Program-made: the position numbers and the translations under genes
NCBI GenBank assembly: GCA_046297835.1
Contig: JBKBHI010000001.1
Coordinates: 391,354 to 455,353, forward strand
Length of the DNA: 64,000 nucleotides
Source of the DNA: Alphaproteobacteria bacterium
GTDB taxonomy: Bacteria > Pseudomonadota > Alphaproteobacteria > SMXQ01
Direction: 5' to 3'
Part shown: one piece after another, positions 15,843-46,222 of the stretch
How positions within the stretch are numbered: the stretch's first letter is position 1
Layout: each line of letters opens with the position of its first letter
The notes under the pieces: model-generated
Told to the model about the DNA's origin: nothing
Databases searched by the model: none
What the model saw: only the letters and a program-made list of their open reading frames with translations

Positions 15843-15901
15843 GGGCTTGAGACGGGGAGATTGGCTGTGCTCGCAGTCTTCAGCGAACTCGTCTCCGCGC
15901 T

Positions 15902-17385: not shown

Positions 17386-17793
17386 ATGATGCGGAAAACC
17401 CTCGCATATCTGCTGATCGTGGCCGTAGCCCTGATTTCCTATGGTCCAGCCAGCACTCCCATGTCCGCTGCGGCCGCCTCGCCCGCAAACGCGGATATGG
17501 CACCCATGCCGACACACGCTGATATGGCGTCCATGCCTGCTCACGCGGACATGGCCTCCTTGCCCTGCGCCGATCAACCCATGGGCACCGACCAACAGGG
17601 CACGAGGCCACCCTGCACCGCCGACTTCGGCAACTGCATGGCTCGGTGCGCGATATTGATCCAGCCGGCCGCGATGGCATATCAGTCCAACCAATATCCG
17701 AAACCTGTCGTCACCGCCTTCAATTGGGCGGTGCCGCCTACGGTCGCGGCTGCTCTCCCCTTCCGACCGCCCCGTTCCTCGATCCTCAAATAA
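17386..17793 (+). CDS. secreted Met/His-repeat protein, putative metal-binding (CopL/DUF2946-like?)
   Basis: Signal peptide. Three tandem 9-aa repeats (ADMAPMPTH / ADMASMPAH / ADMASLPC). Cys-rich tail (PPCTADFGNCMARC). Lies upstream of cusB. Confidence 0.5.
   Translation: MMRKTLAYLLIVAVALISYGPASTPMSAAAASPANADMAPMPTHADMASMPAHADMASLPCADQPMGTDQQGTRPPCTADFGNCMARCAILIQPAAMAYQSNQYPKPVVTAFNWAVPPTVAAALPFRPPRSSILK
17491..17571 (+). repeat. 3 x 27-bp imperfect tandem repeat inside the Met/His-repeat gene
   Basis: Repeats gcggatatggcacccatgccgacacac, gctgatatggcgtccatgcctgctcac and gcggacatggcctccttgccctgcgcc. Confidence 0.7.
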
Positions 17794-17896
17794 ATCTCGC
17801 GGCGCCGCCTGACGACTAGGCGGCTATCAGCACACGCATGCGGATCGCCTGATCGGCATGCCGCCACGCATGTGCGAACGCTATCGAGGATCGACT

Positions 17897-19429
17897 ATGA
17901 ACAAGATTTCAACCCTGATTGCCGGGGGCTTCACCGCTGTGCTCGCCCTGGGCATGATTCTTCTAAACGCCCCCGTTAACGCCGAAAGCCCGACATGGCA
18001 GGCGGTGAAGTCTGAGGTCGCCGTCGGGACATCCGTCCGACTGGAGGTGACGCTCAACGGGGCCACAGGCCCCATTACCGTGACGTCGGCTCGTCTCGAC
18101 ATGGGGCCTGATGGCATGGCGACGATGACCACGCGTATTAGTCCAATCGCGTCAACGACGCCTGGCGTGTTTGCGTTCGAAGCCGACCTTGTCATGGCCG
18201 GCCGCTGGGCACTGACCCTCTCGGCGAAGGTTGAGGGTCAGTCTCAGCCTGTGACGGGGATCGTCGTTTTCACGGCTGTCGAGAAGAAGGCGGGTGCAGA
18301 ATCAGTACCCACGCCAACTGGGGATCGGAAGCTCCTGTACTACCGCAACCCAATGGGCCTGCCGGACGTCTCGTCAATGCCAAAGAAAGATTCGATGGGG
18401 ATGGACTACATCCCCGTCTATTCCGACGAGGTCACTGGAATTGGGGGCGCCATTCGGATTGCCCCGGAACGAGTCCAGCGGGCCGGAGTGCGCACGGAGC
18501 TGGTGGCACCCCACGACCTAACTAGGACAATAAAGGCAGTTGCCACGATCACGCCCGACGAAAGCCGTCTCGGCATAGTAACAGCCAAGTTCGATGGCTT
18601 CGTTGAGCAACTGCTGGTCCCGCTGACTGGTAGCGAAGTTCGCGCTGGCCAGCCCCTCGTGAGGGTCTGGATTGAGAGTAAAGATATCCTGCAAAAGCAG
18701 GCTGATTTTCTTATTGCCCTTAAGCGTCCAGGCGAGGCCGAACAGGCGGAGAGAAACCTGCGCCTTTTCGGGATTTCCGATCAAGAGATTGCACAGCTAC
18801 GCAAGACGGGACAAGCCGTCCGGTCGGTGGTGCTCACTGCTCCCTCGAGCGGTACCGTGTTGGCAAAGCCTTCCGTCGTGGGCATGCGCTTTTCAGCGGG
18901 CGACACGCTGTTCCGAACAGCTGATTTGTCGACCGTCTGGGCGATGGCTCAGGTTTCCGAACGGGACCTGGGCCTCGTGCGCATCGCCCAGACTGCGCGA
19001 ATCACATTGAAGGCCTATCCGAACGCTCCCATCGAAGGTCGGGTTGCATTTATCTATCCGGAAATCGATATGCAGACCCGCACGGCAAGCGTGCGTATCG
19101 AGCTTCCAAACCGCGAGGGAATCCTGCGGAGCGGCCTGTATGCCGACGTCGCCATCGAAGCTCGGCCCGACAGCGGACCAACGCTCGCCGTGCCGGAATC
19201 CGCCATTATCGATAATGGCACGAAGCGCGTCGTCTTTGTCGACAAGGGCAACGGCATCTACGAGCCGCGCAAGCTGACGCTCGGTCAACGCGGGGGCGGA
19301 TATGTCCAAGTGCGCGACGGTCTGGCCGAAGGCGAACGGATCGTCGTCACGGGCAACTTCCTGATCGACGCCGAGAGCAACTTGCGCGCCGCCCTGACCG
19401 CCTTCACGGCCCCGGAGCAGTCGCAGTGA
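17897..19429 (+). CDS. cusB: RND efflux periplasmic adaptor, CusB-like, with an N-terminal extension
   Basis: Signal peptide. Conserved membrane-fusion-protein segments. Stop overlaps the cusA start. Confidence 0.8.
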   Translation: MNKISTLIAGGFTAVLALGMILLNAPVNAESPTWQAVKSEVAVGTSVRLEVTLNGATGPITVTSARLDMGPDGMATMTTRISPIASTTPGVFAFEADLVMAGRWALTLSAKVEGQSQPVTGIVVFTAVEKKAGAESVPTPTGDRKLLYYRNPMGLPDVSSMPKKDSMGMDYIPVYSDEVTGIGGAIRIAPERVQRAGVRTELVAPHDLTRTIKAVATITPDESRLGIVTAKFDGFVEQLLVPLTGSEVRAGQPLVRVWIESKDILQKQADFLIALKRPGEAEQAERNLRLFGISDQEIAQLRKTGQAVRSVVLTAPSSGTVLAKPSVVGMRFSAGDTLFRTADLSTVWAMAQVSERDLGLVRIAQTARITLKAYPNAPIEGRVAFIYPEIDMQTRTASVRIELPNREGILRSGLYADVAIEARPDSGPTLAVPESAIIDNGTKRVVFVDKGNGIYEPRKLTLGQRGGGYVQVRDGLAEGERIVVTGNFLIDAESNLRAALTAFTAPEQSQ

Positions 19430-22400
19430 TCGCTCGCCTCATTAGATGGTCGGCGTCCAACATCGTCCTGGTGCTGATAGGCAGCGTGTTCCTGACGCTT
19501 GCCGGCATTTACGGCCTGACCCGGCTTCCGCTCGACGCGCTTCCCGATCTCTCGGATACGCAGGTCATCGTCTACACGGAGTATCCCGGTCAGACGCCTC
19601 AGGTCATCGAAGACCAGGTCACATACCCTCTCACTACAGCAATGCTGAGCGTGCCGCGCTCGCGCGTCGTGCGCGGCTTCTCGTTCTTCGGCGTTTCCTT
19701 CGTTTACGTCATCTTCGAGGATGGCACCGACATCTATTGGGCGCGGAGCCGAGTCCTTGAATACCTCAACGTCGCGGCGAAGCGATTGCCGGCAGGCGTA
19801 ACGCCGAATCTGGGACCGGATGCCACGGGCGTCGGCTGGATTTACCAGTATGTCGTGAACGGCAAGGACTACGATCTTGCCGAACTTCGCTCCATACAAG
19901 ATTGGCAATTACGCTTCGGCCTTGCGAAAGCCGATGGCGTTGCCGAAGTGGCGAGCGTCGGCGGCTTTGTGAAGCAATACTCTATTGTCGTCGATCCCCA
20001 GCGGATGAGGGCGCTCGGCTTGACGCTAGAAGGCATTCGCGATGCGGTCCGAGCCAGCAATATGGACGTCGGCGGGCGGACGATCGAGCTCTCCGAGACC
20101 GAGTTTATGATCCGCGGCCGCGGCTATATCCAAAGTCTTCAGGACATCGAGCAGATCGTCTTGAAGGCCACCAACGGCGTGCCCGTAACCGTGCATGACG
20201 TAGCAAGGGTCGAACTCGTCCCGGACGAGAGGCGTGGCATTGCTGAATTAAATGGCGAAGGCGAAGTCGCCAGCGGCATTACGATCCAGCGCTATGGCGC
20301 CAATGCACTCGACGTCATCAAAAGCGTTAAGAACCGATTGGCTGATATCGCCTCGAGCCTTCCCGAAGGTGTGAACATCCTTCCAATCTATGATCGCTCG
20401 GTACTCATCGAGCGAGCCATCGAAACGCTCAGGTCCACGTTGATCGAAGAGAGCATCGTGGTGGCGCTGATCTGCTTCATCTTCCTTCTTCACGCGCGGA
20501 GTGCGCTGGTGGCGATCGTCACGATCCCGATCGGCATCCTCGCCGCGCTGGCCATCATGAACGTCCTGGGGATCGGCTCGAACATCATGAGCTTGGGCGG
20601 CATCGCGATCGCCATTGGCGCCATGGTCGATGCGGCGATCGTCATGATCGAGAACGCCCATAAAAGATTGGAACACGCCCCACCTGACATGCCGCGGACT
20701 GAGGTGCTGATCCGCGCGGCACAGGAGGTCGGCCCGGCGCTGTTCTTTAGCCTGCTGATCATCACCGTCTCGTTCTTGCCGATTTTCGCGCTGGAAGCCC
20801 AGGAAGGCCGGCTTTTCAAACCGCTCGCCTACACGAAGAGCTTCTCCATGGGCGCGGCCGCCTTGCTTTCAGTGACGCTAGTGCCAGCTCTGATGGTTCT
20901 ATTCATCCGTGGCAGAATCATTCCAGAAGCCCGCAATCCCCTCAACCGTCTATTGATCTGGCTCTACCGCCCGATCATTCGCCTAGTGCTGCAAGCGAAG
21001 TTCCTCACCATCGTTATCGCTGTGGCGATCCTCGCCGTATCGATCATTCCCGCGAAGCGGCTCGGCACGGAGTTCATGCCAAATCTCAACGAGGGCACAC
21101 TCATGTATATGCCCACGACCTTGCCCGGTATTTCGGTGACCAAGGCGGCGGAGTTGTTGCAAACCCAGAACAAGATCATCAAGACCTTCCCCGAGGTGAG
21201 CTCGGTCTTCGGCAAGGCAGGCCGCGCGCAGACGGCGACCGATCCGGCGCCGATGGAAATGTTCGAGACGATCATCAACTTGAAGCCCGAGACCGAATGG
21301 TCCGCCGGCATGACGGTGGACAAGCTGATCGCCCAGATGGATGCCGCCTTGCAGTTTGCTGGCGTCAGCAACGCCTGGACGATGCCTATCAAGGCGCGCA
21401 TCGATATGCTCTCGACTGGAATCCGCACCCCCGTGGGCGTCAAGATATTCGGAAAGGACCTCAAGGAGCTGGAGCGCCTTGCCCGCGAGGTAGAGACCAC
21501 GCTTCGCAAGGTCGCCGGCACTTCCAGCGCCTATGCCGAGCGGGTCAATAGCGGGTATTTCCTGGAGATCGTACCGGACCGAACGCAGATCGCCCGCTAT
21601 GGGCTGACGGTTCAGGACGTGCAGAACACGATCTCCATGGCTCTCGGCGCTGAAATTGTGACCACGACGGTAGAGGGCCGCGAACGATATGGGGTCGTGC
21701 TTCGCTATCCCCGCGACGTGCGAAGCGATACGGACGCCATCGCGTCCGAGGTTCTCGTCTCACTGCCGAATGGCTCGGCCATACCACTTGGCGAAGTCGC
21801 CACAATCCAGCGCACGCAGGGGCCGACATCCATCCGCACCGAGGATGGGCAACTCGTCGTCTATGTCTACGTCGACATCCGCGACCGCGACTTGGGTGGC
21901 TATGTCCGCGACGCTCAGAAACAGGTAGCCGAACAGGTTGCCTTCCCCGCCGGCTACTTCGCCACTTGGAGTGGCCAGTTCGAGTATCTGGAACGTGCCG
22001 AGGCCCGTTTGCAGATCGTGATCCCAGCCACTCTGCTGGTGATCTTCCTGTTGCTCTACCTGAACTTCCGCCGGATGTCGGATACGCTGATCGTCATGCT
22101 GTCGTTGCCATTTTCCTTGGTCGGCGGCGTTTGGTTCATGTACTGGGAGGGCTTCAACATGAGTGTGGCGGCCGCGGTCGGCTTCATCGCCCTCGCCGGC
22201 GTCGCTGCCGAAACGGGGGTGATCATGCTGGTCTATTTGCATCATGCCTTGGAGGAAGTGCGCGAGCATGCCCGATCGGAGGGCCGCATATTCACCAATG
22301 CAGATCTTCATCAGGCGATCATGACGGGAGCCGTCGAGCGCGTGCGGCCGAAGATGATGACTGTATGCGCCATCATGGCGGGTTTACTTCCCATTTTGTG

Positions 22401-22542
22401 GAGCACGGGCGTCGGCTCCGAGGTCATGCAGCGCATTGCCGTGCCAATGATCGGCGGAATGGTGTCGTCGACGATACTCACGCTTATCGTCATCCCAGCT
22501 CTCTTCGCGTTGATTCACCGACGCGACTTAGGAACTATTTGA
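19426..22542 (+). CDS. cusA: heavy-metal efflux RND pump, CusA/CzcA family
   Basis: 1038 aa. HME-RND hallmarks (conserved N-terminus MIxxxIxxSxxNxxxVL, 12-TM architecture, GAIAIAIGAMVDAAIVMIEN). Confidence 0.9.
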   Translation: MIARLIRWSASNIVLVLIGSVFLTLAGIYGLTRLPLDALPDLSDTQVIVYTEYPGQTPQVIEDQVTYPLTTAMLSVPRSRVVRGFSFFGVSFVYVIFEDGTDIYWARSRVLEYLNVAAKRLPAGVTPNLGPDATGVGWIYQYVVNGKDYDLAELRSIQDWQLRFGLAKADGVAEVASVGGFVKQYSIVVDPQRMRALGLTLEGIRDAVRASNMDVGGRTIELSETEFMIRGRGYIQSLQDIEQIVLKATNGVPVTVHDVARVELVPDERRGIAELNGEGEVASGITIQRYGANALDVIKSVKNRLADIASSLPEGVNILPIYDRSVLIERAIETLRSTLIEESIVVALICFIFLLHARSALVAIVTIPIGILAALAIMNVLGIGSNIMSLGGIAIAIGAMVDAAIVMIENAHKRLEHAPPDMPRTEVLIRAAQEVGPALFFSLLIITVSFLPIFALEAQEGRLFKPLAYTKSFSMGAAALLSVTLVPALMVLFIRGRIIPEARNPLNRLLIWLYRPIIRLVLQAKFLTIVIAVAILAVSIIPAKRLGTEFMPNLNEGTLMYMPTTLPGISVTKAAELLQTQNKIIKTFPEVSSVFGKAGRAQTATDPAPMEMFETIINLKPETEWSAGMTVDKLIAQMDAALQFAGVSNAWTMPIKARIDMLSTGIRTPVGVKIFGKDLKELERLAREVETTLRKVAGTSSAYAERVNSGYFLEIVPDRTQIARYGLTVQDVQNTISMALGAEIVTTTVEGRERYGVVLRYPRDVRSDTDAIASEVLVSLPNGSAIPLGEVATIQRTQGPTSIRTEDGQLVVYVYVDIRDRDLGGYVRDAQKQVAEQVAFPAGYFATWSGQFEYLERAEARLQIVIPATLLVIFLLLYLNFRRMSDTLIVMLSLPFSLVGGVWFMYWEGFNMSVAAAVGFIALAGVAAETGVIMLVYLHHALEEVREHARSEGRIFTNADLHQAIMTGAVERVRPKMMTVCAIMAGLLPILWSTGVGSEVMQRIAVPMIGGMVSSTILTLIVIPALFALIHRRDLGTI

Positions 22543-22552
22543 GGAAACGATC

Positions 22553-23059
22553 ATGCTCTCGCCGTCGCCTGCGAATGTCGCCGCTCGAAAACGCCGTACG
22601 ACGATCTACATCGCCGTTTCCGCGTCTATCGCTCTCGTCATCGCTGTCTTTATGTTTTGGCTATACCCGTCCCTAAGCAGAATTTCTACGGGCCAGCAAA
22701 GCAAGATCGATCCTAGCGACCGAAAACAGGTGGCTTTGGGCAAAACGGTCTATGTAGAGCGTTGCGCCGTCTGCCACGGTCGCAATTTGGAAGGCCAACC
22801 TAACTGGAGGGAACGCAAATTAGACGGAAAGCTTCCGGCGCCGCCGCACGATGCGTCTGGGCATACTTGGCACCACGCAGACGAGCAGCTTTTCCTGATC
22901 ACGAAGGAAGGCTTGGCGGCGATTGTGCCTGGCTACGAGAGCGACATGCCGGCCTATAAAGGGATTCTCAGCGATCAGGAGATCGCGGCGGCGCTCGCCT
23001 ACATTAAGAGCACATGGTCCGCCGACATCCGTGCACGTCAGCCTCAGGCCCTAAAATAG
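22553..23059 (+). CDS. membrane-anchored mono-haem cytochrome c
   Basis: N-terminal transmembrane segment and a single CAVCH haem-binding motif. Lies 11 bp after cusA. Confidence 0.65.
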   Translation: MLSPSPANVAARKRRTTIYIAVSASIALVIAVFMFWLYPSLSRISTGQQSKIDPSDRKQVALGKTVYVERCAVCHGRNLEGQPNWRERKLDGKLPAPPHDASGHTWHHADEQLFLITKEGLAAIVPGYESDMPAYKGILSDQEIAAALAYIKSTWSADIRARQPQALK

Positions 23060-23150
23060 AGCGGACTAAAAATGCTCGCTTCGCGGTTTGGGCGCCCTCA
23101 CATCAAAAGCATTAGCGTTTGGGCGGCGCCGAAGCGCCGCCCAACATCGT

Positions 23151-23342
23151 TTATGAAGGTGTGTAGCCCGCTTCGGCGATAGCTTTTTTAGCCTCGGCCT
23201 CGCTAATTTCGCCTTCGACGGAGACGGTACGCGACGGCAAGTCGATCCGCACTTTGGCTGCAGGAGCCACACTCTGGATCGCCCTAGTAATGACGGACAC
23301 GCAATGTCCGCAAGTCATGTCCTGAACGTTAATCTCTGCCAC
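23151..23342 (-). CDS. copZ: CopZ-like heavy-metal-associated copper chaperone
   Basis: 63 aa with an MTCGHC motif in an HMA fold. Confidence 0.8.
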   Translation of the reverse strand: MAEINVQDMTCGHCVSVITRAIQSVAPAAKVRIDLPSRTVSVEGEISEAEAKKAIAEAGYTPS

Positions 23343-23374
23343 TTTGGCCTCCTATGGTGAGGGTGGGGCACAAC

Positions 23375-23405
23375 GGATGAGGCTTCCCACCCTGGGAAGG
23401 TCAAT
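23375..23405 (-). promoter_or_regulatory. CueR/MerR-type promoter (TTGACC, 19-bp spacer with dyad CTTCCCA-N3-TGGGAAG) reading towards copZ
   Basis: Dyad read at 23384-23400. TTGACC on the minus strand at 23400-23405. 19-bp spacer. Confidence 0.5.
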
Positions 23406-23428
23406 TGCTTCCGTGTGATTTTTTCCGT

Positions 23429-23459
23429 TTGACCTTCCTATCGTTGGAAGGTTCATACC
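23429..23459 (+). promoter_or_regulatory. CueR/MerR-type promoter (TTGACC, 19-bp spacer with dyad ACCTTCC-N7-GGAAGGT, then CATACC) for copA
   Basis: Strongly resembles the E. coli PcopA architecture (TTGACCTTCC...GGAAGGTT). Lies about 80 bp upstream of copA. Confidence 0.6.
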
Positions 23460-23537
23460 TCATGGCACTCGGCCTTATAACGGAGAGAAATCATACAATC
23501 GCCACAGAGCATTTCCCTAGATATCCCAATAAATGGA

Positions 23538-26054
23538 ATGACTTGCGCGAGTTGCGTCGCCCGAGTCGAAAAGGCCATCCAGGCTGTTTCGGGCGTTACG
23601 GCTGTAGCGATAAATTTGGCCGCCGAGCGCGCGCACGTCTCCACCGAAACGGCGGACAATCTGAGTGAGATCGCCAATGCGATTCGGTCGGCGGGATACG
23701 AGCCGGAAGAACGCGCCATCGAGTTGGCGATCAGCGGCATGACCTGTGCGAGATGTGTCGTTCGTGTCGAGAGAGCGCTCTTTGCGGTGCCCGGTGTCGT
23801 CTCTGCGTCCGTCAATCTCGCGACAGAGCGTGCGACCGTGCATGTCATCGACAGTGCGCTGAAGACAGCTGCTCTCATCGGATCAATCAAGCAAGCCGGC
23901 TACAGCGCTGAAGCGATTATCGGCGGACAGCCCGATCTCGCAGAGCACGAAGCGGCTAAGCGCGCTCATGAGCTTCAGTTTCTAAAGCGCTCCACAATTG
24001 TGGCAGCTGCGGCGACCGCCCCACTATTTATTGTCGAAATGGCTCTTCATACAATTCCGGCGGCGCATCACTGGCTCGCCGGCACCTTAGGCGAAACGAA
24101 CTGGCACATAATCAGTTTCGTCCTAGCCACCATTGCGCTGTTCGGACCTGGACTAACGTTCTATCGCAAAGGCGTGCCGAACCTACTGCGACTGACCCCC
24201 GACATGAATTCCCTCGTGGCACTCGGCGCCACGGCGGCATGGGCCTTCTCGGTCATTGCGACGTTCTTGCCAGATGCACTTCCAGCTGGAACAGCAAACG
24301 TCTACTACGAAGCGGCGGCTGTCATCGTGACGCTGATCCTGCTCGGCCGCTGGCTTGAAGCGCGCGCCAAGGGGCGGACAAGCCAAGCAATTAGGCGCCT
24401 GATGACCTTGCAGGCCAAGACGGCTCGCGTCGTCCGCGGTGGTGCGGTTGTGGATGTCGCGATCGACGAGGTCCTATCCGGCGACATTATCGATGTGCGG
24501 CCCGGCGAGCGGATCGCGGTGGATGGCCACGTGACCGAAGGATCCTCGTACATCGACGAGTCGATGATCACCGGCGAGCCGATCCCGGTTCATAAGAGTC
24601 AGGGAGCGAGCGTCGTCGGCGGGACGGTCAATCGCACGGGCGCATTCCGCTTCCAGGCCGACAAAGTCGGGGAGCAGACCATGCTGGCTCAAATCGTTCG
24701 TATGGTTGAGGCGGCGCAGGGCGCCAAGCTCCCCATTCAGGCTTTGGTCGACAAGGTCACGGCTTGGTTCGTCCCCGCCGTCATCGCCGCCGCCGTCGCG
24801 ACCTTTATCGTCTGGCTTGCCTTCGGCCCGTCGCCGACGCTCAGCTACGCCCTGGTGAATGCAGTTGCCGTTCTCATTATCGCCTGCCCCTGCGCCATGG
24901 GGTTGGCGACACCGACCTCGATCATGGTTGGGACCGGCCGCGCGGCCGAGCTCGGCATTCTGTTCCGCAAGGGTGAGGCGCTTCAGTCCTTGCGCGACGT
25001 GACCATCGTGGCGCTCGACAAGACCGGGACTCTTACGCAGGGCCGCCCGCAGTTGACGCATATCGAAACGACCGAGTCCTTCGAGAAGGACGATGTGCTG
25101 GCATTGGTTGCAGGCATCGAGAGCCGCTCCGAGCATCCGATTGGCGAAGCCCTCGTTGAAGCGGCGAAGGACCGTGGCCTAGACGTGGTTGCCCCCACAA
25201 CGTTCGACTCCGTGCCTGGATACGGTGTGGATGGCGAAGTGGACGGACGCCGGATTCAAGTCGGCGCCGATCGCTACATGGCGAAGCTTGGCCTCGACAC
25301 AGCGATCTTCGCCAACGCGGCCCGGCAGCTAGGCGACCGCGGCGAAAGTCCGCTGTTCGCCGCAATCGACGGCAAGCTAGCCGCGATCCTCGCGGTCGCC
25401 GACCCGATCAAAGAAACCACGCCAGACGCCATCAAGGCACTGCATCGCCTGGGCCTGAAGGTCGCCATGATCACCGGAGACAACCACCGTACGGCAGAGG
25501 CCGTTGCTGCCAGACTTGGAATCGATGAGGTCGTGGCAGAGGTACTGCCTGCGGGCAAGGTCGAGGCTGTAAAATCCCTGCAAAGTGCTGACCGACGCGT
25601 CGCCTTCATCGGCGACGGCGTGAACGACGCGCCAGCACTCGCACAGGCCGACGTTGGCATTGCCGTCGGAACTGGGACGGATATCGCCATCGAAAGTGCC
25701 GACGTGGTGCTGCTGGGCGGCGACCTGCGTGGCGTAGTGAATGCGATCGAGCTAAGCCGTGCAACGATGCGCAATATCCAGCAGAACCTGGTCTGGGCGT
25801 TCGGCTACAACACGCTGTTGATCCCTGTGGCCGCCGGAGCTCTCTATCCCATTTTCGGCTTGCTCTTGTCGCCGATGCTCGCGGCTGGTGCCATGGCGCT
25901 ATCAAGTGTCAGCGTCCTGTCCAATGCCCTCCGCCTTAAGAAGGTGACGCCGGCAATACATATCCATAAGACCGCTGCCGGGCCGCATGCTCGCAGAACT
26001 AATGGACGCTGTGGCAGCCTAGTCAACATGCCTCCGCATTATAGCCGGCGGTGA
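23538..26054 (+). CDS. copA: copper-translocating P1B-1-type ATPase with two N-terminal HMA domains
   Basis: MTCASC and MTCARC metal-binding sites. CPC transmembrane motif ([13 protein letters not shown]). DKTGTLT and GDGVNDAP. The first HMA beta-strand (ISLDIPING) is encoded in-frame upstream of the only ATG, with no canonical start. Confidence 0.9.
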
Positions 26055-26089
26055 TGTCTAGAGAGGTCAACAGGGCGGCTTGGTCCATT

Positions 26090-26105
26090 TGTAACAAACT
26101 GTAAC
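26090..26105 (+). promoter_or_regulatory. direct repeat TGTAACA-N3-TGTAAC, putative CopR (OmpR-family) box upstream of copRS
   Basis: ttTGTAACAaacTGTAACg lies about 115 bp upstream of the copR ATG. An identical repeat occurs upstream of the cupredoxin/pcoAB operon. Confidence 0.5.
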
Positions 26106-26221
26106 GCTTGCAGCCGAGGCATATGCGGCTCGGTGCGACAATGCTAAATTCTCTTATGGGCATGGCTCAATCTAACTCGCGACGCGAAAACGCTTCAGGA
26201 TTCGGCGAGAAGCCGAGTGTG

Positions 26222-26923
26222 ATGACGCATGTCCTCATCGTCGATGATGATGGCGAAATCCGCGATCTACTTGGCCGCTTCCTGCAAAAGCATGGCTACA
26301 AAACTAGCGGCGTTCACAATGGCCGTGAGATGCGCAAGAAATTAGAGTCGGAGCAGATCGGCCTCGTGATTCTGGATGTAATGCTTCCGGGTGAAGACGG
26401 CATGACCTTGTGCCGAGAACTCAGATCAAAATCATCCATGCCCATTATTATGCTGACAGCGATGGGAGATGAAACGGATCGCATTATCGGACTTGAATTA
26501 GGCGCGGACGACTATCTGGCCAAGCCCTTCAACCCCAGAGAGTTGCTGGCCCGCATTAAAGCCGTCTTGCGACGGACTGCTATTCAGGCTTCCCCTAATA
26601 AACAGGGAAGAATTGCTTCATTTGCAGGATGGAAAGTAGATCAGGTTCGTCGCGAGCTGACCTCACCAGCCGGCATTTCAAAGGAGCTTACTGCGGGCGA
26701 ATACGACCTATTGATAGCCTTCGTCGAGCATCCGCAACGCGTGCTGACGCGCGATCAATTGCTCGACCTAACGAGGGGGCGTGACGCTGGACCTTTTGAC
26801 CGCAGCATCGATATCCAAGTCAGCCGCCTAAGACGAAAATTGGATGAACATGGACAACCAGGCCTAATCAAAACGGTTCGCGGTACAGGCTATACCTTGG
26901 CTGCAAAAGTTGAATGGACGTGA
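26222..26923 (+). CDS. copR: OmpR-family response regulator (CopR/CusR-like)
   Basis: Receiver domain (LIVDDDGEIRDLL, phospho-acceptor Asp in VILDVMLPG) plus a winged-helix output domain. Confidence 0.8.
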   Translation: MTHVLIVDDDGEIRDLLGRFLQKHGYKTSGVHNGREMRKKLESEQIGLVILDVMLPGEDGMTLCRELRSKSSMPIIMLTAMGDETDRIIGLELGADDYLAKPFNPRELLARIKAVLRRTAIQASPNKQGRIASFAGWKVDQVRRELTSPAGISKELTAGEYDLLIAFVEHPQRVLTRDQLLDLTRGRDAGPFDRSIDIQVSRLRRKLDEHGQPGLIKTVRGTGYTLAAKVEWT

Positions 26924-28251
26924 TGCGCCTTTTTCCAGATAGCATCGCAGGCCGGACGATACTTGTTCTGCTTGTGGGATTAACCCTGTCTCACCTCGTC
27001 AGTATTGGGACCTATCAGAACGATCTTTGGGCCGAGCTTGGGCTCAGCAGTAATCACCATTTAGCTGATCGCATCGCTTCGATTTCTCATGCTGTATCCG
27101 AGCAACCTATAACAAATCGCGAAAGCACGGCGCACAGCCTATCAAGCCGCACGCTCGAGGCGCATTGGCATGACAGCGGTCCAATAGATTTCGGCCATGG
27201 AGAAAAATTAGCCGAGCTTGAGCAACGAATCAGGCAAACTCTGCCTGAAGATCTGGCGAGTGCCGGCTATTTGGTGAATGCCTCTGCTGCATCCACAGGA
27301 CACGGAGACGGGGCAATACGCATTGTTGTTCAATTGTCTGAAAACAGTTGGTTAAGTTTTACCGCAGAGACACCAGACCGGCACCCCGCGAATTCGCATC
27401 ATTTGCTCACGTCGACAACATTGATGGCGCTTGCCGTCATTCTGTTTTCTATAATTTCCGTACGCATTCTGACGGCGCCTTTGCGAAAACTGTCTCAAGC
27501 TGCGGAGCGGCTGGGAACGGATATGTCAGCGCCACCGCTTGCTGAGGCGGGGCCTCGGGAAGTGCGCCAAGCGGCCCGTGCCTTTAATGGGATGCAAGGT
27601 CGTATTAAACGCCTGATTTCAGATCGCATGCAAATGTTGGCGGCGATCTCGCATGACCTTCGGACACCCATCACGCGCTTGCGACTTCGCGCCGAATTCG
27701 TCGAAGATGAAGCTCAACGCCGCAAAATGCTTGAAGACTTGAGCGAAATGGAAGCGATGATAGCCTCCGTCTTGGCGTTCATTCGCGACGATGCTGCCAA
27801 AGAAGATACGAAATCGGTCGACGTCTCGTCAGTGCTCGAAACGATTTGCTCCGATATGACGGATGCCGGCCATAAAGTTCAGTTTGAGCGCGACGAACAG
27901 GTAGTCCTACGATGCCGGCCGTTAGCTCTGAAACGCGCTCTGATTAATCTGATCGACAATGCAATAAAATATGGCCATTCGGCAACCGTCGCATTGACGT
28001 CCGAACCAATAGGAATCCGCATCGATATTGACGATGAGGGCCCCGGGATTCCGCAGGCGCTACGCGAAAAAGCGTTTTCTCCTTTTTATCGGATAGAAAC
28101 GTCACGCAACCGCATGACTGGAGGTACTGGTCTTGGCCTAACGGTCGCCCGCTCCATAATCCGTGCTCATGGCGGCGAAATAGAACTATCCGATAATCCC
28201 GGCGGCGGCCTGCGTGCGACGATTCGGCTTCCCCAAATTATCCCATCCTAG
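26914..28251 (+). CDS. copS: sensor histidine kinase (CopS/CusS-like)
   Basis: Two transmembrane segments. HisKA H-box (ISHDLRTPITRL). HATPase G-boxes (GGTGLGLTVA). Confidence 0.8.
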   Translation: MDVMRLFPDSIAGRTILVLLVGLTLSHLVSIGTYQNDLWAELGLSSNHHLADRIASISHAVSEQPITNRESTAHSLSSRTLEAHWHDSGPIDFGHGEKLAELEQRIRQTLPEDLASAGYLVNASAASTGHGDGAIRIVVQLSENSWLSFTAETPDRHPANSHHLLTSTTLMALAVILFSIISVRILTAPLRKLSQAAERLGTDMSAPPLAEAGPREVRQAARAFNGMQGRIKRLISDRMQMLAAISHDLRTPITRLRLRAEFVEDEAQRRKMLEDLSEMEAMIASVLAFIRDDAAKEDTKSVDVSSVLETICSDMTDAGHKVQFERDEQVVLRCRPLALKRALINLIDNAIKYGHSATVALTSEPIGIRIDIDDEGPGIPQALREKAFSPFYRIETSRNRMTGGTGLGLTVARSIIRAHGGEIELSDNPGGGLRATIRLPQIIPS

Positions 28252-28390
28252 GGCAAGTTAGCCGCTATCCTCGATCGGCCAGCATAGGGTGCTCAGGACT
28301 ATGGGGTGTTAGATAGTCTTGAGCGTCTACACTGGCCGAGCAGCTACTGAGCGCTACAAAAAGTGCAGCACCAAATGATGCTCAATTGGT

Positions 28391-28645
28391 TTATTGGCAG
28401 TTCGTGCGTTGACCGCCAATGCAAGCTGGAACAGCTCTGCTCCTGCTCGGAAGCAGAAAGCCATTAGCTGGTTTGTGTTCCCTCTTATCTCGGTCAATAA
28501 AAGGGGTGGCGGGAGGGCTGTTATCCGTGAGGACCAAGCTCATCCGCGGAGGATCGCCATCCTCATGACGCGCGATGGCAGGCGCGCTGAAAGTTGCCGA
28601 AGCAAAAGCTACGGCGACCACTGCAATTCTCAATGTAACGTACAT
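28391..28645 (-). CDS. hypothetical small secreted protein
   Basis: 84 aa with a clear signal peptide (MYVTLRIAVVAVAFASATFSAPAIA). No homology recognised. Weak call. Confidence 0.25.
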   Translation of the reverse strand: MYVTLRIAVVAVAFASATFSAPAIARHEDGDPPRMSLVLTDNSPPATPFIDRDKREHKPANGFLLPSRSRAVPACIGGQRTNCQ

Positions 28646-28918
28646 AAATTGACTCCCTGATTGATTGCATACCTTCAGGAGTCTATTTGCGCGCTGTAAC
28701 TACGGTATTTCCGGCTTGTTTCTCTTTGCAGCGAATTGTTTCCGGAAGATATCTATCTAGTTCGCAGTCGCGGCGTGTGGGACTGGATCGACTTGGTCAG
28801 AAGTTGGCAGCGGCCAATAACCTAGCGGAACTTATCGATTACCCAGGTCTTCGGTATGAGCCGTTTTTCAAGAGTGGCCTCTACGTATTGGTATGAGGCG
28901 CTTTACGCTTGGAGCGCA

Positions 28919-29502
28919 TCACTCTCGTGCCGCAAACCAAGCCAGGGGCAACGCTATCTCAGCAGACTCGATCAACTGCCGTAAACAGGTCTTGGGAGAC
29001 CAAATTTGCAAGAGTGTGAGCAACGGCAACGTGATGATCCGCGGTACGCGGCGAAACAGCCGCGCAACCAAAAAATACATCGGCAGCATCGAGATGAATA
29101 ACAGCATGTGAAGGGGCTCAATGTACCACCATAGGTACTCCGTCCACAGCACCTGGCCGCCGTTGAACTCCCCAGCGACCAGTGTTGCGGCGAAATATAG
29201 CGTCGTCAATAGCGCAAAGAAGCAGGTAAAATGGACAATTTTGCGATCTAAATAAGTGCGCCAGGGATGATCGTTGGTGCGGCTGAAAAAATAACCCCGC
29301 AATCAAAAAGAAAGCCGGCATTCGGAATGGCTTGGCGAAATCCCCCCAAGTATTGAACCCAGCCCCCAAATTGGGCCAGGCTTTGGACATAGATTGTCGC
29401 ATACAAGCCGACGACGGCGACGGGACAGATCCACTTGGCATAGCCGATCCAAGGAACGCGGGGGTTGCTTTCCTCTAAAGCCATACTGTCTTCCCATGAC
29501 AT
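28919..29502 (-). pseudogene. disrupted membrane protein gene (acyltransferase-3/DUF1624-like?) split over three frames
   Basis: Three consecutive overlapping minus-strand ORFs (29502-29248, 29441-29118, 29302-28919) all encode hydrophobic segments (for example FRMPAFFLIAGLFF). This is consistent with two frameshifts. The region is AT-richer than its flanks. Confidence 0.3.
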
Positions 29503-33049: not shown

Positions 33050-33066
33050 TGTAACAAAGTGTAACA
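33050..33066 (-). promoter_or_regulatory. direct repeat TGTAACA-N3-TGTAACA, putative CopR box upstream of the cupredoxin/pcoAB operon
   Basis: gTGTAACAaagTGTAACAgc has the same half-sites and spacing as the box at 26090. Confidence 0.5.
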
Positions 33067-33157: not shown

Positions 33158-33601
33158 CTACGAATGCGCTCCGCGGCATTTCCCATGATCGCCAAGCGTC
33201 TCAATGACGCGGCACTCGGCGATCGTGCCTTGATGGCAATCTGAGGTCATCCGCACCAACTCACGCTCCATGCCCTTCAGCAGAGCGATCTTCCTTCGCA
33301 CTTCGACCAAATGTCGGCGGGCAATGGCATCGGCTTCTGTACAGGGCGCATCATGACGACCGCTCATCGCCAGGAACTGCCGCACATCATCCTGCGAAAA
33401 GCCGAGATCGCGGGCGTGCCTTATAAAGCGCAGCGTCGTAGCGGCCGCTTCTGAATATCGACGCTGGTTACCGGCAGTCCGGGGGGCTTGGGGCAGCATC
33501 CCCATCTGCTCGAAGTAGCGGATTGTTTGGACCTTGCACCCTGTCTGCTGAGCCAACTCACCTATCGTTAAGTATTTGATATCACTTATATCAGTGGCCA
33601 T
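33158..33601 (-). CDS. MerR-family heavy-metal-responsive regulator (ZntR/CadR/PbrR-like)
   Basis: N-terminal MerR HTH (LTIGELAQQTGCKVQTIRYFEQMGML). Dimerisation helix. C-terminal Cys cluster (PCTE...SDCH...AECRVIETLGDHGKC). Confidence 0.8.
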   Translation of the reverse strand: MATDISDIKYLTIGELAQQTGCKVQTIRYFEQMGMLPQAPRTAGNQRRYSEAAATTLRFIRHARDLGFSQDDVRQFLAMSGRHDAPCTEADAIARRHLVEVRRKIALLKGMERELVRMTSDCHQGTIAECRVIETLGDHGKCRGAHS

Positions 33602-33611
33602 AAGATTCTCC

Positions 33612-33642
33612 TTGAAGCTCTAGTAACTGTAGCTCTTATGTT
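33612..33642 (+). promoter_or_regulatory. MerR-type promoter (TTGAAG, 19-bp spacer, TATGTT) between the divergent merR-like and ATPase genes
   Basis: The 19-bp spacer is read directly. It contains a direct AGCTCT...AGCTCT repeat rather than a perfect dyad. Confidence 0.45.
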
Positions 33643-33677
33643 GAGCTTTGCAATATTGGACTTTGGGAGAGCTCATC

Positions 33678-36125
33678 ATGTCGGTCGCCACCTTGGGTCA
33701 GCCGTTGCGGTTCAAAGTCGAGGGCATGGATTGCCCAAGCTGCGCGATCAAGATTGAGAACGCGCTGAAATGGCTTCCGGGAGCCGGACAGATAGCCGTC
33801 GATGTCGGCGCCGGCACTGTCGCCGTCACACCGGCCAGCGGAGATTTCGTCCCCGAGGACGCCGCCGAGACGATCCGCAAGCTTGGATACAAAGTCCTCG
33901 CAACCCCAGCGGCGCCGGAATCTCGCCAACCGGTTCGCTTCAGCGTCGAGGGCATGGATTGCCCAAGCTGTGCGATCAAAATCGAGAACGCCCTGAAAAG
34001 AAACCCCGGAGTCGGCTCGATAGCGGTCAATGTCGGCGCCGGCACCGTCGCGGTGACGCCGATCAGCGATGCGTTCGTGGCGGAAGACGCGGCGGAAACG
34101 ATTCGACGCCTCGGATTTAAAGCGCAAGCGAATGCGCATCATGCCAAGGCCTCGCAACACAGTCCCGATAAACACGACCACGCCGGCCATGGCCGTGCGG
34201 GCCATGACCACGCGGGCCACGACGATGGCAGCCCTGCCACCGCAATATCCAGCAGCTCATGGTGGCAAACCTCTAAAGGCCGGTTGGTTCTCGTCGCCGG
34301 CGCGCTGCTGGCTATCGCTTTCATCGCAGACCAGATAGCCCCGGCATTGGGGCCCTGGCCGTTCGTTGCCGCAACGTTGGTCTCGCTGGTGCCCGTGGCG
34401 CGCAGGGCTTTTTCGGCGGCGCGCTATGGCTCGGTCTTCACCATCGAGATGCTGATGACTATCGCCGCTATTGGGGCTCTCGCCATCAACGCGGCGGAGG
34501 AAGCCGCAGTCGTCGTGTTTCTATTCTGCGTCGGCGAGCTGCTCGAAGGCGTCGCCGCGATGCGCGCCCGCAAGAGCATCGCCGCTCTCGGCGATCTGAC
34601 GCCCAAGACGGCCATGATCGTCGACGGAACGACCCTCCGCGAAGTTCAAGCGGATACGCTGCAACCGGGACATGTCGTCATGGTGCGCCCCGGCGACCGC
34701 GTTCCGTCTGACGGCGAGATTCTGGAAGGCAGCTCCGACATCAACGAAGCGCCGATCACAGGCGAGTCGGTGCCTAAAGCCAAGGCGCCCGGAGACACGG
34801 TCTTCGCCGGTACGATCAATCAGACCGTCGCCATCAAGGTTAAAGTGACCAAAGCCGCCAATGACAACACCATTGCGAGGATTCTCCGCTTGGTGGAGGA
34901 GGCTCAAGAGTCGAAGGCCCCCGTCGAGCGGTTCATCGACCGTTTTGCGCGGTTGTACATGCCCTTCGTGGTCGGCATCGCCATTTTAGTCGCGATCGTG
35001 CCGCCGCTCGCTTTCGGACAGCCTTGGGGCGAATGGGTCTATCGCGCTCTCGCTCTGCTGCTGATCGCCTGTCCTTGCGCGCTTGTGATCTCGACGCCTG
35101 CCGCCATCGCTGCGGGCCTGGCAGTCGGGGCGCGGCGCGGCTTGCTGATCAAAGGCGGCGCCGTGTTGGAAGGGGTTGGCCGGCTGCGCACCATCGCGTT
35201 CGACAAGACAGGCACGCTGACCGAGGGAAAGCCGAAGGTCACGGATATCGTGAATATCAACGCCTCGCCCGAGGACGCGCTCCGTCTAGCCGCCGCGCTG
35301 GAGAAAGGTTCAAATCATCCCATCGCCAAGGCGATCCTCGCCCGCGCGGATCGCGACGGACAAAGCCACACGACGGCGCAGGACGTCGCATCTCTCGGCG
35401 GTCATGGCCTGACGGGCGTCGTGGAGGGCCGCGCGCTGTTCCTCGGCAATCCGCGCAGCGCGGCGCAGCGGTCCGGCTTCGACGATCACGTGGCCGCCGA
35501 GACCTCCCGCTTGGAAAGCGAAGGGAAGACGGTCGCGGTTTTGATCGAGGGCAACTCCACTCTTGCCCTCATCGCGCTGCGCGACGAACCTCGTAAAGAC
35601 GCCAAACGCGGCTTGGCTGCTCTATCCGCGCTCGGCGTTAAAGGCGTGATGCTGACGGGCGACAACGCGCGCGCGGCGGCGGCCATCGCCCGCGATCTTG
35701 GCGTGGAACCACGGGCCGAACTGCTGCCTGAGGACAAGGCCCGCATCGTCAATGAACTGAAAGCTGCGGGCTATGGTCCGGTCGGCAAAGTCGGCGACGG
35801 CATCAACGATGCGCCCGCGCTGGCGGCGGCCGACGTCGGCATCGCGATGGGCGGCGGAACCGATGTCGCCCTGGAAACGGCGGACGCCGCGCTGTTGAAC
35901 AATCGCGTCATGGGCGTCGCCGAGTTGGTGAAGCTATCGCGGGCGACTCTGTCCAATGTTCACGTCAACGTGGCTTTGGCTATTGGCTCGAAAGCGATAT
36001 TTCTCGTGACGACCGTTCTAGGCTTGACGGGCATGTGGGTCGCCATCATGGCCGATACCGGCGCGACAGTGCTCGTCACCCTCAATGCGCTGCGCTTGCT
36101 CGCCTTCCGATTCGACAAAACCTGA
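33678..36125 (+). CDS. P1B-2-type (Zn/Cd/Pb) heavy-metal ATPase with two tandem HMA domains and a His-rich linker
   Basis: GMDCPSCAIKIENALK occurs twice (ZntA-like metal site). His-rich HDHAGHGRAGHDHAGHDD. CPC motif (IACPCALVISTP). DKTGTLT, GDGINDAP. A TTG at 33648 is an alternative start. Confidence 0.85.
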   Translation: MSVATLGQPLRFKVEGMDCPSCAIKIENALKWLPGAGQIAVDVGAGTVAVTPASGDFVPEDAAETIRKLGYKVLATPAAPESRQPVRFSVEGMDCPSCAIKIENALKRNPGVGSIAVNVGAGTVAVTPISDAFVAEDAAETIRRLGFKAQANAHHAKASQHSPDKHDHAGHGRAGHDHAGHDDGSPATAISSSSWWQTSKGRLVLVAGALLAIAFIADQIAPALGPWPFVAATLVSLVPVARRAFSAARYGSVFTIEMLMTIAAIGALAINAAEEAAVVVFLFCVGELLEGVAAMRARKSIAALGDLTPKTAMIVDGTTLREVQADTLQPGHVVMVRPGDRVPSDGEILEGSSDINEAPITGESVPKAKAPGDTVFAGTINQTVAIKVKVTKAANDNTIARILRLVEEAQESKAPVERFIDRFARLYMPFVVGIAILVAIVPPLAFGQPWGEWVYRALALLLIACPCALVISTPAAIAAGLAVGARRGLLIKGGAVLEGVGRLRTIAFDKTGTLTEGKPKVTDIVNINASPEDALRLAAALEKGSNHPIAKAILARADRDGQSHTTAQDVASLGGHGLTGVVEGRALFLGNPRSAAQRSGFDDHVAAETSRLESEGKTVAVLIEGNSTLALIALRDEPRKDAKRGLAALSALGVKGVMLTGDNARAAAAIARDLGVEPRAELLPEDKARIVNELKAAGYGPVGKVGDGINDAPALAAADVGIAMGGGTDVALETADAALLNNRVMGVAELVKLSRATLSNVHVNVALAIGSKAIFLVTTVLGLTGMWVAIMADTGATVLVTLNALRLLAFRFDKT
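33699..34120 (+). repeat. intragenic tandem duplication (about 219-bp period) encoding the two HMA domains
   Basis: The two copies are highly similar at the nucleotide level across about 200 bp (ggcatggattgcccaagctg[c/t]gcgatcaa[g/a]at[t/c]gagaacgc...). Confidence 0.7.
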
Positions 36126-36146
36126 TGAACATCTGATTTCGACAAT

Positions 36147-36638
36147 ATGCCCCGCTCCTTGCACCTTGGATTATTTTCGGCGTTCTTCGTTGCCGCGTTT
36201 TCAGCCGATCAGGCTTCTAAGAAAATCGCTTTAGACGCGCTTGCAAATCCGCCTCGGATCGTTGAAGTCCTTTCTTTTTTCAACCTGAGGCTCGGATTCA
36301 ACAGCGGAGTGAGCTTCGGATTGTTCGCGACCGATTCGCCGTACATCCTGATCTCTCTGACGGGGGCCGTGATCGCGATTCTCGCCTGGTGGGCTTATCG
36401 CGCTCAATCCGCTATTGAGACGGTTGCATTGGGGCTCATTGTCGGCGGCGCGCTGGGCAACCTCGTCGATCGCATTCGACATGGCGCAGTTGTCGATTTT
36501 CTCGACCTGTTCTACCAGGAATGGCATTGGCCGACCTTCAATGTCGCCGACATTACGATTGTTTCCGGGACGTTGCTTTTAGTTCTGACGTCCTTGCGCC
36601 AAGGCAAAACGCCGACAAAACCCGCCTCAAAAAGCTGA
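36147..36638 (+). CDS. lspA: lipoprotein signal peptidase II
   Basis: Conserved LspA blocks (FNxGxSFG, NLVDRIRHGAVVDF, FNVADI). Confidence 0.8.
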   Translation: MPRSLHLGLFSAFFVAAFSADQASKKIALDALANPPRIVEVLSFFNLRLGFNSGVSFGLFATDSPYILISLTGAVIAILAWWAYRAQSAIETVALGLIVGGALGNLVDRIRHGAVVDFLDLFYQEWHWPTFNVADITIVSGTLLLVLTSLRQGKTPTKPASKS

Positions 36639-36657
36639 ATTTCCCCTGCGTGAACAG

Positions 36658-37170
36658 ATGACCGGAATGACTGGACGAGCGGCCCTCCTGGTCGTGTTTG
36701 CTGTTTTTACAATGCAGGCGGGCGCGCTCTCGCGCGCGGTCGCGCATGAGTTCAAAGCGGGCGAGATAACTGTCCAACACCCCTTTAGCCGCGTGACGCC
36801 GAAGGGCGTTAAAACTGGAGCGGCCTACATGACGATCGTGAACGGCGGAACATCGCCTGACCGCCTCATCGGCGCGACGACGGAGATTGCAGAACGCGCC
36901 GAAATTCATCGCACAACCACGACTGACAACGGCGTCATGAGAATGCGCCTCCAGCCCGACGGAATCGCCATACCCGCTGCCGGCGAGATCAAGCTCCAGC
37001 CCACGAGCGAGTATCATATCATGCTGGTCGGCCTCAGCGAGCCGCTGCAAGAAGGAATGAAAATTCCTCTCGTCGTGAAGTTCGAGAAAGCGGGATCCGT
37101 TGCGGTCGAACTGGCTGTCGAGGCTCTGCGAAAACGTCCCGATGCGCCGCCGAGTCACGGCGATCATTGA
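36658..37170 (+). CDS. periplasmic copper chaperone PCu(A)C (DUF461)
   Basis: Signal peptide and the H(M)x10Mx21HxM-type copper motif (HIMLVGLSEPLQEGMKIPLVVKFE). Confidence 0.75.
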   Translation: MTGMTGRAALLVVFAVFTMQAGALSRAVAHEFKAGEITVQHPFSRVTPKGVKTGAAYMTIVNGGTSPDRLIGATTEIAERAEIHRTTTTDNGVMRMRLQPDGIAIPAAGEIKLQPTSEYHIMLVGLSEPLQEGMKIPLVVKFEKAGSVAVELAVEALRKRPDAPPSHGDH

Positions 37171-37778
37171 CGATGAAAACCCTACGGCTTGTTCGTATCG
37201 TCGCGTGGATCGCTGTCGCATTGGCGCTCACGCTGCTTTTTGGCTATTGGAAATCCCTGCCGTCCAAAAAATCTGAGGATGCGGCTATCACGTCGCCGAT
37301 GCGGCTTGGAGGGTCTTTTTCGCTCGTTGACCACACCGGAGAGGCTGTCACAGATAAAGATTATCGCGGCAAGCCGCATTTGCGGTTTTTCGGTTTCACG
37401 CATTGCCCGGACGTCTGCCCTACGACATTGTCGTGGCTCGCCGACCTCGTGGAGCAGTCGGGCGGAGATGTCCCTATTCTGCTCGTCAGCGTCGATCCCG
37501 AGAGAGATACCCCAGAGGTGCTCGCGGATTACGTCTCCAGTTTTGGCCCGAACATCGTTGGACTGACGGGGACGGTCGATCAGATCGACGCTGTCGTCAA
37601 AAGTTGGGGAGCCTATTCCAAACGGGTGCCGCAAGAGGGCGGAGGATATACGATGGACCACACCGCTAGCGTCTACTTGGTCGATGGCGACGGCGCTTTC
37701 CGCGGCACTCTCGACATTCATGATGCGTCTCCGACGGCAAATCTCGCCAAACTTAAACGTCTCCTCGAATCGAATTGA
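37167..37778 (+). CDS. SCO1/SenC copper chaperone / thiol-disulfide oxidoreductase
   Basis: N-terminal membrane anchor. CxxxC motif (FTHCPDVCP) plus the conserved distal His in a thioredoxin fold. Confidence 0.8.
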   Translation: MTMKTLRLVRIVAWIAVALALTLLFGYWKSLPSKKSEDAAITSPMRLGGSFSLVDHTGEAVTDKDYRGKPHLRFFGFTHCPDVCPTTLSWLADLVEQSGGDVPILLVSVDPERDTPEVLADYVSSFGPNIVGLTGTVDQIDAVVKSWGAYSKRVPQEGGGYTMDHTASVYLVDGDGAFRGTLDIHDASPTANLAKLKRLLESN

Positions 37779-37790
37779 AGCCGGAGCATT

Positions 37791-37973
37791 ATGAGCGACA
37801 GCCAGAACGAGCGAAAATCGAGACAGAAGCTCCAGCAGCGCCTGAAGTCTCGCAACCTCGCTCTGGCCGCCGTTCTGGCTGGGTTGGTCATCTTGTTTTT
37901 CGCTGTCACTATCGTTCGCGTTCAACAAGGAAGCGAACAACGGGGCAATGCCCCTCTCATTATAAATCGTTGA
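37791..37973 (+). CDS. hypothetical small single-TM protein
   Basis: 60 aa: a basic N-terminus, then one hydrophobic helix. No homology recognised. Confidence 0.25.
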   Translation: MSDSQNERKSRQKLQQRLKSRNLALAAVLAGLVILFFAVTIVRVQQGSEQRGNAPLIINR

Positions 37974-37986
37974 GGGACTGACGGAG

Positions 37987-39077: not shown

Positions 39078-39101
39078 CAGCCGTTATTACTGAGGTCCGA
39101 C

Positions 39102-46219: not shown

Positions 46220-46222
46220 TAG

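Follow-up and report, generated by a model that had tools for sequence, protein, structure and literature searches.

Organization of the copZ-copA Locus

The stretch of DNA analysed here, 64,000 nucleotides long and hereafter called the window, carries the genes copZ and copA, which are divergently transcribed from a shared intergenic region of 196 bp (150 bp from the copZ start to the aligned copA start). The features of this locus and of its surroundings are collected in Table 1. The placing of two promoters between these genes in the initial annotation was borne out. The first gene encodes an HMA-domain chaperone with an MTCGHC motif and the second an ATPase that scores 605.6 on the NCBIfam ATPase-IB1_Cu model, above the cut-off of 397.

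Table 1. Coordinates of the genes, promoters, candidate operators and repeats discussed in the text (window numbering).
Feature	Position	Strand	Description
Left end of the metal-resistance element	15860-15885	+	ATTGGCTGTGCTCGCAG...
Cytochrome c gene	22553-23059	+	Convergent with copZ
GC-rich hairpin	23119-23144		11 pairs, 9 of them G-C; between copZ and the convergent cytochrome c gene
copZ	23151-23342	-	63-aa cytoplasmic Cu(I) chaperone; Pfam HMA, E = 1.6e-13; MTCGHC motif
PcopZ, MerR-type promoter	23374-23404	-	-35 TTGACC 23404-23399; 19-bp spacer 23398-23380; -10 CATCCG 23379-23374
PcopZ, candidate CueR-type operator	23381-23401		ACCTTCC-CAGGGTG-GGAAGCC on the minus strand; 12/14 vs the CueR box
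PcopA, MerR-type promoter	23429-23459	+	-35 TTGACC 23429-23434; 19-bp spacer 23435-23453; -10 CATACC 23454-23459
PcopA, candidate CueR-type operator	23432-23452		ACCTTCC-TATCGTT-GGAAGGT; 14/14 vs the E. coli PcopA box, 0 mismatches
copA	23493-26054 (start approximate)	+	Cu(I)-exporting P1B-1 ATPase; two N-terminal HMA domains (Pfam)
Direct repeat	26090-26105	+	TGTAACAAACTGTAAC; 36 bp past the copA stop; kept in L165
OmpR-family response regulator gene	26222-26923	+	Pfam, NCBIfam; directly after copA
Histidine kinase gene	26914-28251	+	Pfam, NCBIfam; after the response regulator gene
Cupredoxin, multicopper oxidase and CopB operon	32945-29640	-
Second repeat copy	33050-33065		TGTAACAAAGTGTAAC; upstream of the cupredoxin/multicopper oxidase/CopB operon
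MerR-family gene	33158-33601	-	Sole one in the window; Cys87, Cys122, Cys130
Third MerR-type promoter	33613-33643	+	TTGAAG, 19 bp, TATGTT; dyad AGCTCTAGTAACTGTAGCT; faces the ATPase gene 33648-36125
Zn/Cd/Pb-type ATPase gene	33648-36125	+	ATPase-IB2_Cd 522 vs cut-off 313.5; divergent from the MerR-family gene

copZ begins with a GTG codon preceded, 6 nt upstream, by an AGGAGG ribosome-binding site, and a 63-residue copZ gene is likewise called in four metagenome contigs. These four contigs, whose copZ is identical to that of the window (L001-L004), end inside copA at four different positions between 24140 and 25192, which suggests that, in the samples concerned, the 3' half of copA varies between strains or contains repeats. 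To judge from the T runs on either side of it, the GC-rich hairpin separating copZ from the cytochrome c gene is probably a bidirectional terminator.

The reading frame of copA is open from position 23481, and no ATG, GTG or TTG start codon was found upstream of its first metal-binding motif (23481-23540). At positions 23493-23495, an ATA codon aligns with the ATG start of copA in a sister element described below, both codons standing 7 nt after a GGAG. The first ATG of the gene (23538) is the methionine of the MTCASC metal-binding motif; gene callers start copA at this codon, inside the motif, and thereby cut into the first HMA domain. The ATA codon is also found in metagenome contigs 100% identical to the window and originating from three sequencing runs, and is therefore not a read error. 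Its presence in place of ATG could mean that the cytoplasmic arm of copper resistance is being run down in the window lineage.

At the other end of the gene (25995-26054), the window differs from contig L165 of the sister element by an 8-bp indel, CAACAAGT being missing from the window. This indel shifts the frame and rewrites the last ~20 CopA residues, the window protein passing the TAG stop of L165 and ending in a different tail that is ~8 residues longer. Among relatives, the CopA tails that follow NALRL(K/R)-x-x vary from ~3 to 35 residues in length and also in sequence. The long, non-matching tail was considered as a possible deletion scar, an explanation which was rejected because the tails of relatives vary and the sister element has the same junction. 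An exact look-up of the 838-residue CopA product gave no match. Similarly, a metagenome scan returned no near-identical copy of the C-terminal half of CopA (best match, 73%), and thus no ancestral form with copA-cueR from which the deletion junction could be placed.

The Metal-Resistance Island

Leftwards from a point inside copA, the freshwater metagenome contigs L001 and L002 show 100% identity with the window as far as position 15860. To the left of this position (9335 in L001, 9019 in L002) the flanks are unrelated, with a TauD gene in the window and response-regulator/EAL genes in L001 and L002. Since identity ends sharply at 15860, the same element is found in two genomic contexts. The GC content of the island (0.48-0.60) is below that of its flanks (0.65-0.69), and positions 40266-42451 code for a DUF2924 protein and a large serine recombinase. 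A search for inverted or direct terminal repeats that would mark the ends of the island found none, and only its left end was located. In the PLSDB plasmid collection, the intergenic region returned one weak, irrelevant match, and the copA 3' end together with the regulator gene returned only distant matches (65-74%) to response-regulator genes, indicating that the element does not correspond to a plasmid module already known.

Several other modules are present in the window. Positions 17386-22542 encode a CusB-/CusA-like RND pair which has no adjacent gene for an outer-membrane factor; this pair is preceded by a 135-aa ORF without family match and followed by the cytochrome c gene. An acyltransferase_3 ORF (28919-29302) is cut to 127 aa by a ~944-bp deletion at position 28969, as judged against the intact 337-aa gene of L165-L167. 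From 40266 to 48964, where the GC content is the lowest of the window (0.48-0.50), the DUF2924 protein and the serine recombinase are followed by an HTH/M78-peptidase pair and then by Nmad2, MazG with MazG_C and a 5-hmdU DNA kinase, these last three being encoded by genes which are typical of phage thymidine hypermodification.

Two Outward-Facing Promoters Between copZ and copA

On the plus strand, the whole promoter region reads ...CGGATG AGGCTTCCCACCCTGGGAA GGTCAA ttgcttccgtgtgattttttccgt TTGACC TTCCTATCGTTGGAAGGTT CATACC... The initial annotation had proposed two outward-facing promoters of MerR architecture in this region, each with a TTGACC hexamer and a 19-bp spacer containing a dyad, and all of these elements were recovered at the positions given in Table 1. 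In each case, the candidate operator is a CCTTCC-N7-GGAAGG-type dyad which lies within the 19-bp spacer and overlaps the -35 hexamer. The E. coli PcopA box ACCTTCC-N7-GGAAGGT, as quoted in PMC10187127, was used as query. The dyad facing copA, which had been described as resembling this box, matches it at every one of the 14 specified positions. The dyad facing copZ had been read as CTTCCCA-N3-TGGGAAG; this second reading is also correct, as it forms a perfect palindrome (23383-23399) with about the same centre and corresponds to the CueR-type site extended inwards.

When the -35 hexamer and the dyad are combined into a single motif of 15 specified bases, TTGACCTTCC-N7-GGAAG, exactly two matches occur in the 64 kb, both at the copZ-copA promoters and facing outwards. 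By chance, 0.10 matches per window would be expected even if up to two mismatches were tolerated, and none of 100 shuffled sequences reached the observed count. With 24 bp between their -35 hexamers, the promoters stand back to back without overlapping, and the operator centres are separated by 51 bp. A scan of 22900-23700 for canonical sigma-70 promoters, with spacers of 16-18 bp, found none. Both -10 elements are weak, CATACC having 3 and CATCCG 2 of their 6 bases in common with TATAAT; the corresponding element of E. coli PcopA is TAACCT, as against CATACC in the window. A terminator-like hairpin at 23395-23412, which overlaps the PcopZ -35 hexamer and operator, was judged to be a by-product of the dyad. 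Collectively, these sequence features support a CueR/MerR architecture for the two predicted promoters, which face genes for Cu(I) handling.

Conservation of the Operators

A sister element, represented by contig L165 (GCA_044226095.1) and by L166-L168 from three other sequencing runs, is 95.6% identical to the window over positions 19598-28969 and shares the gene order cytochrome c, copZ, copA, regulator and kinase. The junction between copA and the regulator gene, including the sequence over the copA stop, is reproduced in the independent assemblies L165-L167; this junction is real and old.

Between the copZ start and the copA start, the window and L165 differ at 20 positions in 150 bp. None of these differences falls within the 34 positions that make up the four half-sites and the two -35 hexamers, as against 20 in the 117 other positions of the intergenic region (p = 0.004, one-sided Fisher test). 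The PcopZ operator is identical in the two variants and the PcopA operator differs at a single position of its N7 spacer (23439); the PcopA -35 and -10 elements are also unchanged, and the PcopZ -10 element differs at two positions (CATCCG in the window, CATGCC in the sister element). For copA itself, the comparison with L165 gave a synonymous divergence of 0.149 and a dN/dS of 0.17, with all 830 compared codons intact. At this synonymous divergence, 34 neutral positions should have accumulated ~5 changes. The operators thus appear to be still in use, and the absence of any change in their core argues that some protein continues to read both of them. On this sequence evidence, the reader is most likely a host CueR acting in trans, which is the simplest candidate.

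The same promoter layout was found in more distant loci. CopA relatives in reference genomes are 53-65% identical to the window protein, and many of them have one CueR box ~65-105 bp upstream of the first HMA motif. A divergent copZ with two outward promoters (TTGACC, 19-bp spacer and dyad) is present in L005 (Reyranella massiliensis), L008, L019 (a Roseovarius MAG) and L072, and three further two-promoter loci occur among the metagenome relatives (L087, L089 and L100); the layout is therefore kept in at least seven related loci besides the sister element, which is about 95% identical. In the window and in L005, L008, L019 and L072, the centre-to-centre spacing of the operators ranges from 42 to 118 bp. 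Given this variation, the two promoters look like independent units and not like a cooperative pair.

In most close relatives, the gene for the presumed sensor is found next to copA. A MerR gene lies directly after copA and on the same strand in ~16 of the closest genome loci and in most of the closest metagenome loci. Three of these regulators were scored against the CueR equivalog model NCBIfam TIGR02044 and obtained 162-170, above its cut-off of 147.4; they have Ser77 and the CxGDxRPDCPI (C-x7-C) metal loop, and a serine occupies the Ser77 position in all copA-linked regulators of the relatives. Unlike in most of these relatives, cueR is absent downstream of copA in both the window and the sister element. 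The CueR box is near-identical across alpha-, beta- and gammaproteobacterial relatives, which makes it plausible that a CueR acting in trans could serve these promoters.

Search for the Cu(I) Sensor

No cueR was found in the 64-kb window when all six-frame ORFs of at least 55 aa were searched with the MerR-family HMM. Similarly, tblastn with the E. coli CueR and more than 20 CueR proteins from relatives revealed no cueR remnant in the window, the best chance matches having E values of 0.012 or higher. The initial annotation had reported no obvious cueR adjacent to the promoters, and this statement can thus be extended to the entire window. Its suggestion of a sensor encoded elsewhere has gained a better footing, since cueR normally follows copA in relatives and is missing here with the operators conserved.

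The sole MerR-family gene of the window, at 33158, encodes a protein whose NCBIfam scores are 99.1 for CadR-PbrR, 96.1 for MerR and 94.5 for CueR, all of them below the cut-offs of the respective models. Its Cys87 aligns with Ser77 of CueR. In CueR structural work, a cysteine at this position is the mark of divalent-metal sensors, the serine selecting for monovalent metals. The metal-binding loop of the 33158 protein is C-x7-C, of the same length as that of CueR; the spacing of its three cysteines (C87/C122/C130) rules out the exact PbrR arrangement, which had been considered. Its own neighbourhood contains a third MerR-type promoter whose AGCTCTAGTAACTGTAGCT dyad is unlike the CCTTCC-N7-GGAAGG operators and has no copy near copZ or copA. 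This promoter faces the Zn/Cd/Pb-type ATPase gene, which is directly followed by a signal peptidase II gene and, ~2.5 kb further on, by a gene for a BacA-type phosphatase, a setting that is pbr-like. In agreement with its earlier description as ZntR/PbrR-like, Cys87, the best-scoring model (CadR-PbrR, below its cut-off) and the neighbouring ATPase gene point to a predicted sensor of the divalent-metal type, whatever its subtype, and not to a CueR.

The surrounding pbr-like lead/cadmium/zinc module (33158-39914) comprises the MerR-type regulator, the P1B-2 ATPase, signal peptidase II, PCu(A)C, SCO1, DsbB, a DsbA-like protein and a BacA undecaprenyl-pyrophosphate phosphatase. Within the P1B-2 ATPase gene, the segment coding for the N-terminal HMA domain is duplicated (33699-33894 and 33927-34122, 76% identical).

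The Two-Component Pair Downstream of copA

The site occupied by cueR in relatives is taken, in the window, by the genes for an OmpR-family response regulator and a histidine kinase. At the boundary between copA and the regulator gene, the GC content falls from 0.625 to 0.525, and no terminator was found between the two genes. The response regulator scores 154.9 on the heavy-metal response regulator model (CopR/CusR), below its cut-off of 279.2, and scores closer to OmpR.

A repeat of the form TGTAACAAA(C/G)TGTAAC occurs in exactly two copies in the window, at 26090 and 33050, and has no copy in the copZ-copA intergenic region even with up to two mismatches. This repeat is probably the binding box of the response regulator. 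As the box is present only at the regulator genes and at the multicopper oxidase operon and not at copZ-copA, the two-component system probably serves the periplasmic module and itself, and the CueR boxes the cytoplasmic module.

Proposed Mechanism and Alternative Explanations

We consider it likely that copZ and copA are expressed from two independent, outward-facing and CueR-dependent promoters, and that their sensor is a CueR whose gene lies in another part of the host genome. Binding of CueR, induction by copper and the supply of CueR in trans are steps that we infer from the established biochemistry of MerR and CueR regulators. Each operator, within the over-long 19-bp spacer and overlapping the TTGACC hexamer, would be occupied by a CueR dimer. 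In the absence of Cu(I), this dimer would hold the misaligned -35 and -10 elements in an inactive state; once loaded with Cu(I), it would untwist and kink the spacer, allowing the sigma-70 RNA polymerase to open the promoter. The chaperone CopZ and the exporter CopA would consequently be co-induced, with the CueR protein supplied in trans from the host genome. The weak -10 hexamers, the variation of the PcopZ -10 element and the ATA codon of copA count against this explanation.

Alternatively, the operators could be orphaned relics, cueR having been lost, the promoters being weak and constitutive, copZ and copA decaying and resistance relying on the periplasmic module under two-component control. 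The lack of cueR in the window and in the sister element is consistent with such a loss, as are the ATA codon, the indel that alters the CopA tail in the window lineage and the weakness of both -10 elements. Nevertheless, the operator core is unchanged in the face of substantial divergence at the surrounding and synonymous positions, copA evolves under a low dN/dS with its compared codons intact, the sister element retains an ATG start and the altered tail lies in a region which is variable in length and sequence among relatives; we therefore regard decay as unlikely. That the operators merely resemble the consensus by chance was rejected and can be viewed as negligible: the bare 14-base dyad with three mismatches is indeed expected 1.8 times per window, but two exact matches to the 15-base motif are far from the 0.10 expected, each has a 19-bp spacer and points towards a copper gene, and the layout is kept in the related loci and the sister element.

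If the operators are read by a protein, a sensor encoded within the window might be considered in place of a host CueR. The 33158 protein is the only MerR-family candidate, its scores on the CadR-PbrR, MerR and CueR models are hardly separated and its loop is as long as that of CueR; for it to double as the sensor of both promoters is very improbable in view of Cys87 at the Ser77 position, its pbr-like context divergent from a Zn/Cd/Pb-type ATPase gene and the different dyad of its own promoter. The response regulator and histidine kinase might likewise have taken over copZ and copA, as they occupy the cueR slot of relatives and no terminator separates them from copA. This takeover appears most unlikely, as the candidate box of the regulator is found only at 26090 and 33050, OmpR-type activators need no 19-bp spacer with a CueR dyad and, in Pseudomonas, deleting copR or cusR leaves the copA1 promoter unaffected (PMC11195947).

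Control by a host CueR can be extended into a more speculative proposal, which we regard as close to evenly balanced and slightly doubtful: the island would have dropped its own Cu(I) sensor and would join the CueR regulon of any host through two near-universal operators kept under purifying selection, read-through from copA into the regulator and kinase genes possibly priming periplasmic sensing. With no terminator after copA, CueR-driven transcription may indeed read through into these two genes.

The two promoters are one more clear example of a well-understood switch. If control by a host CueR is confirmed, the locus would be a clear instance, in nature, of resistance genes that were acquired horizontally and depend on a conserved regulator of the host in place of one of their own. 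For annotators, it would follow that the copA gene of this island may be silent or uninducible in hosts which do not have a compatible CueR.

Comparison With Known Copper Systems

The closest biochemical reference is PcopA of E. coli, which has the same TTGACC -35 hexamer, 19-bp spacer and ACCTTCC-N7-GGAAGGT box (PMC10187127) as the copA side of the window; by analogy, distortion of the DNA by Cu(I)-bound CueR would be the expected mechanism here. In contrast to the window, E. coli has a single promoter at copA and no divergent copZ, and the N7 bases and the -10 element differ. In Haemophilus influenzae, a CueR box within a 19-bp-spacer promoter also drives the chaperone and ATPase genes (copZ(n)-copA), and experiments have demonstrated the activation of this promoter by CueR and copper (PMC10187127). 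There, however, copZ and copA form one operon, and the divergent partner is cueR, whose 17-bp-spacer promoter overlaps the single box.

Divergent chaperone and ATPase genes with a putative CueR site between them are known from region B of Acinetobacter baumannii, where copZ is divergent from a copA1-cueR operon (PMC7015863, PMC6387184). One putative site is mentioned in these reports, as compared with two complete promoters in the window, and cueR is co-transcribed directly after copA, where the window has a response regulator and a histidine kinase. Similarly, in Cupriavidus metallidurans, cupA is followed by cupR, the CueR orthologue, and the chaperone gene cupC lies on the other strand (PMC10304878). 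This cupC/cupAR arrangement is the layout of L005, L008, L019 and L072; the window differs from it in having no cupR equivalent and in its location inside a mobile metal-resistance island, beside cusBA, multicopper oxidase and pbr-like modules.

Two-tier control has been described in Pseudomonas, with CueR acting on cytoplasmic genes and CopRS/CusRS on periplasmic ones; there, activation of the copA1 promoter needs CueR and is unaffected by the loss of CopR or CusR (PMC11195947). The window resembles this system in having CueR-type boxes at copZ and copA and a two-component box at the multicopper oxidase operon and at the operon of the regulator itself (PMC11195947). Unlike in Pseudomonas, the two-component genes of the window are joined, without a terminator, to the end of the CueR-type copA unit, and their response regulator falls below the heavy-metal regulator cut-off (154.9 vs 279.2). 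The layout of the locus is thus already known from these systems; its sole departure is that cueR is missing and that a two-component pair stands in its place on a mobile island.
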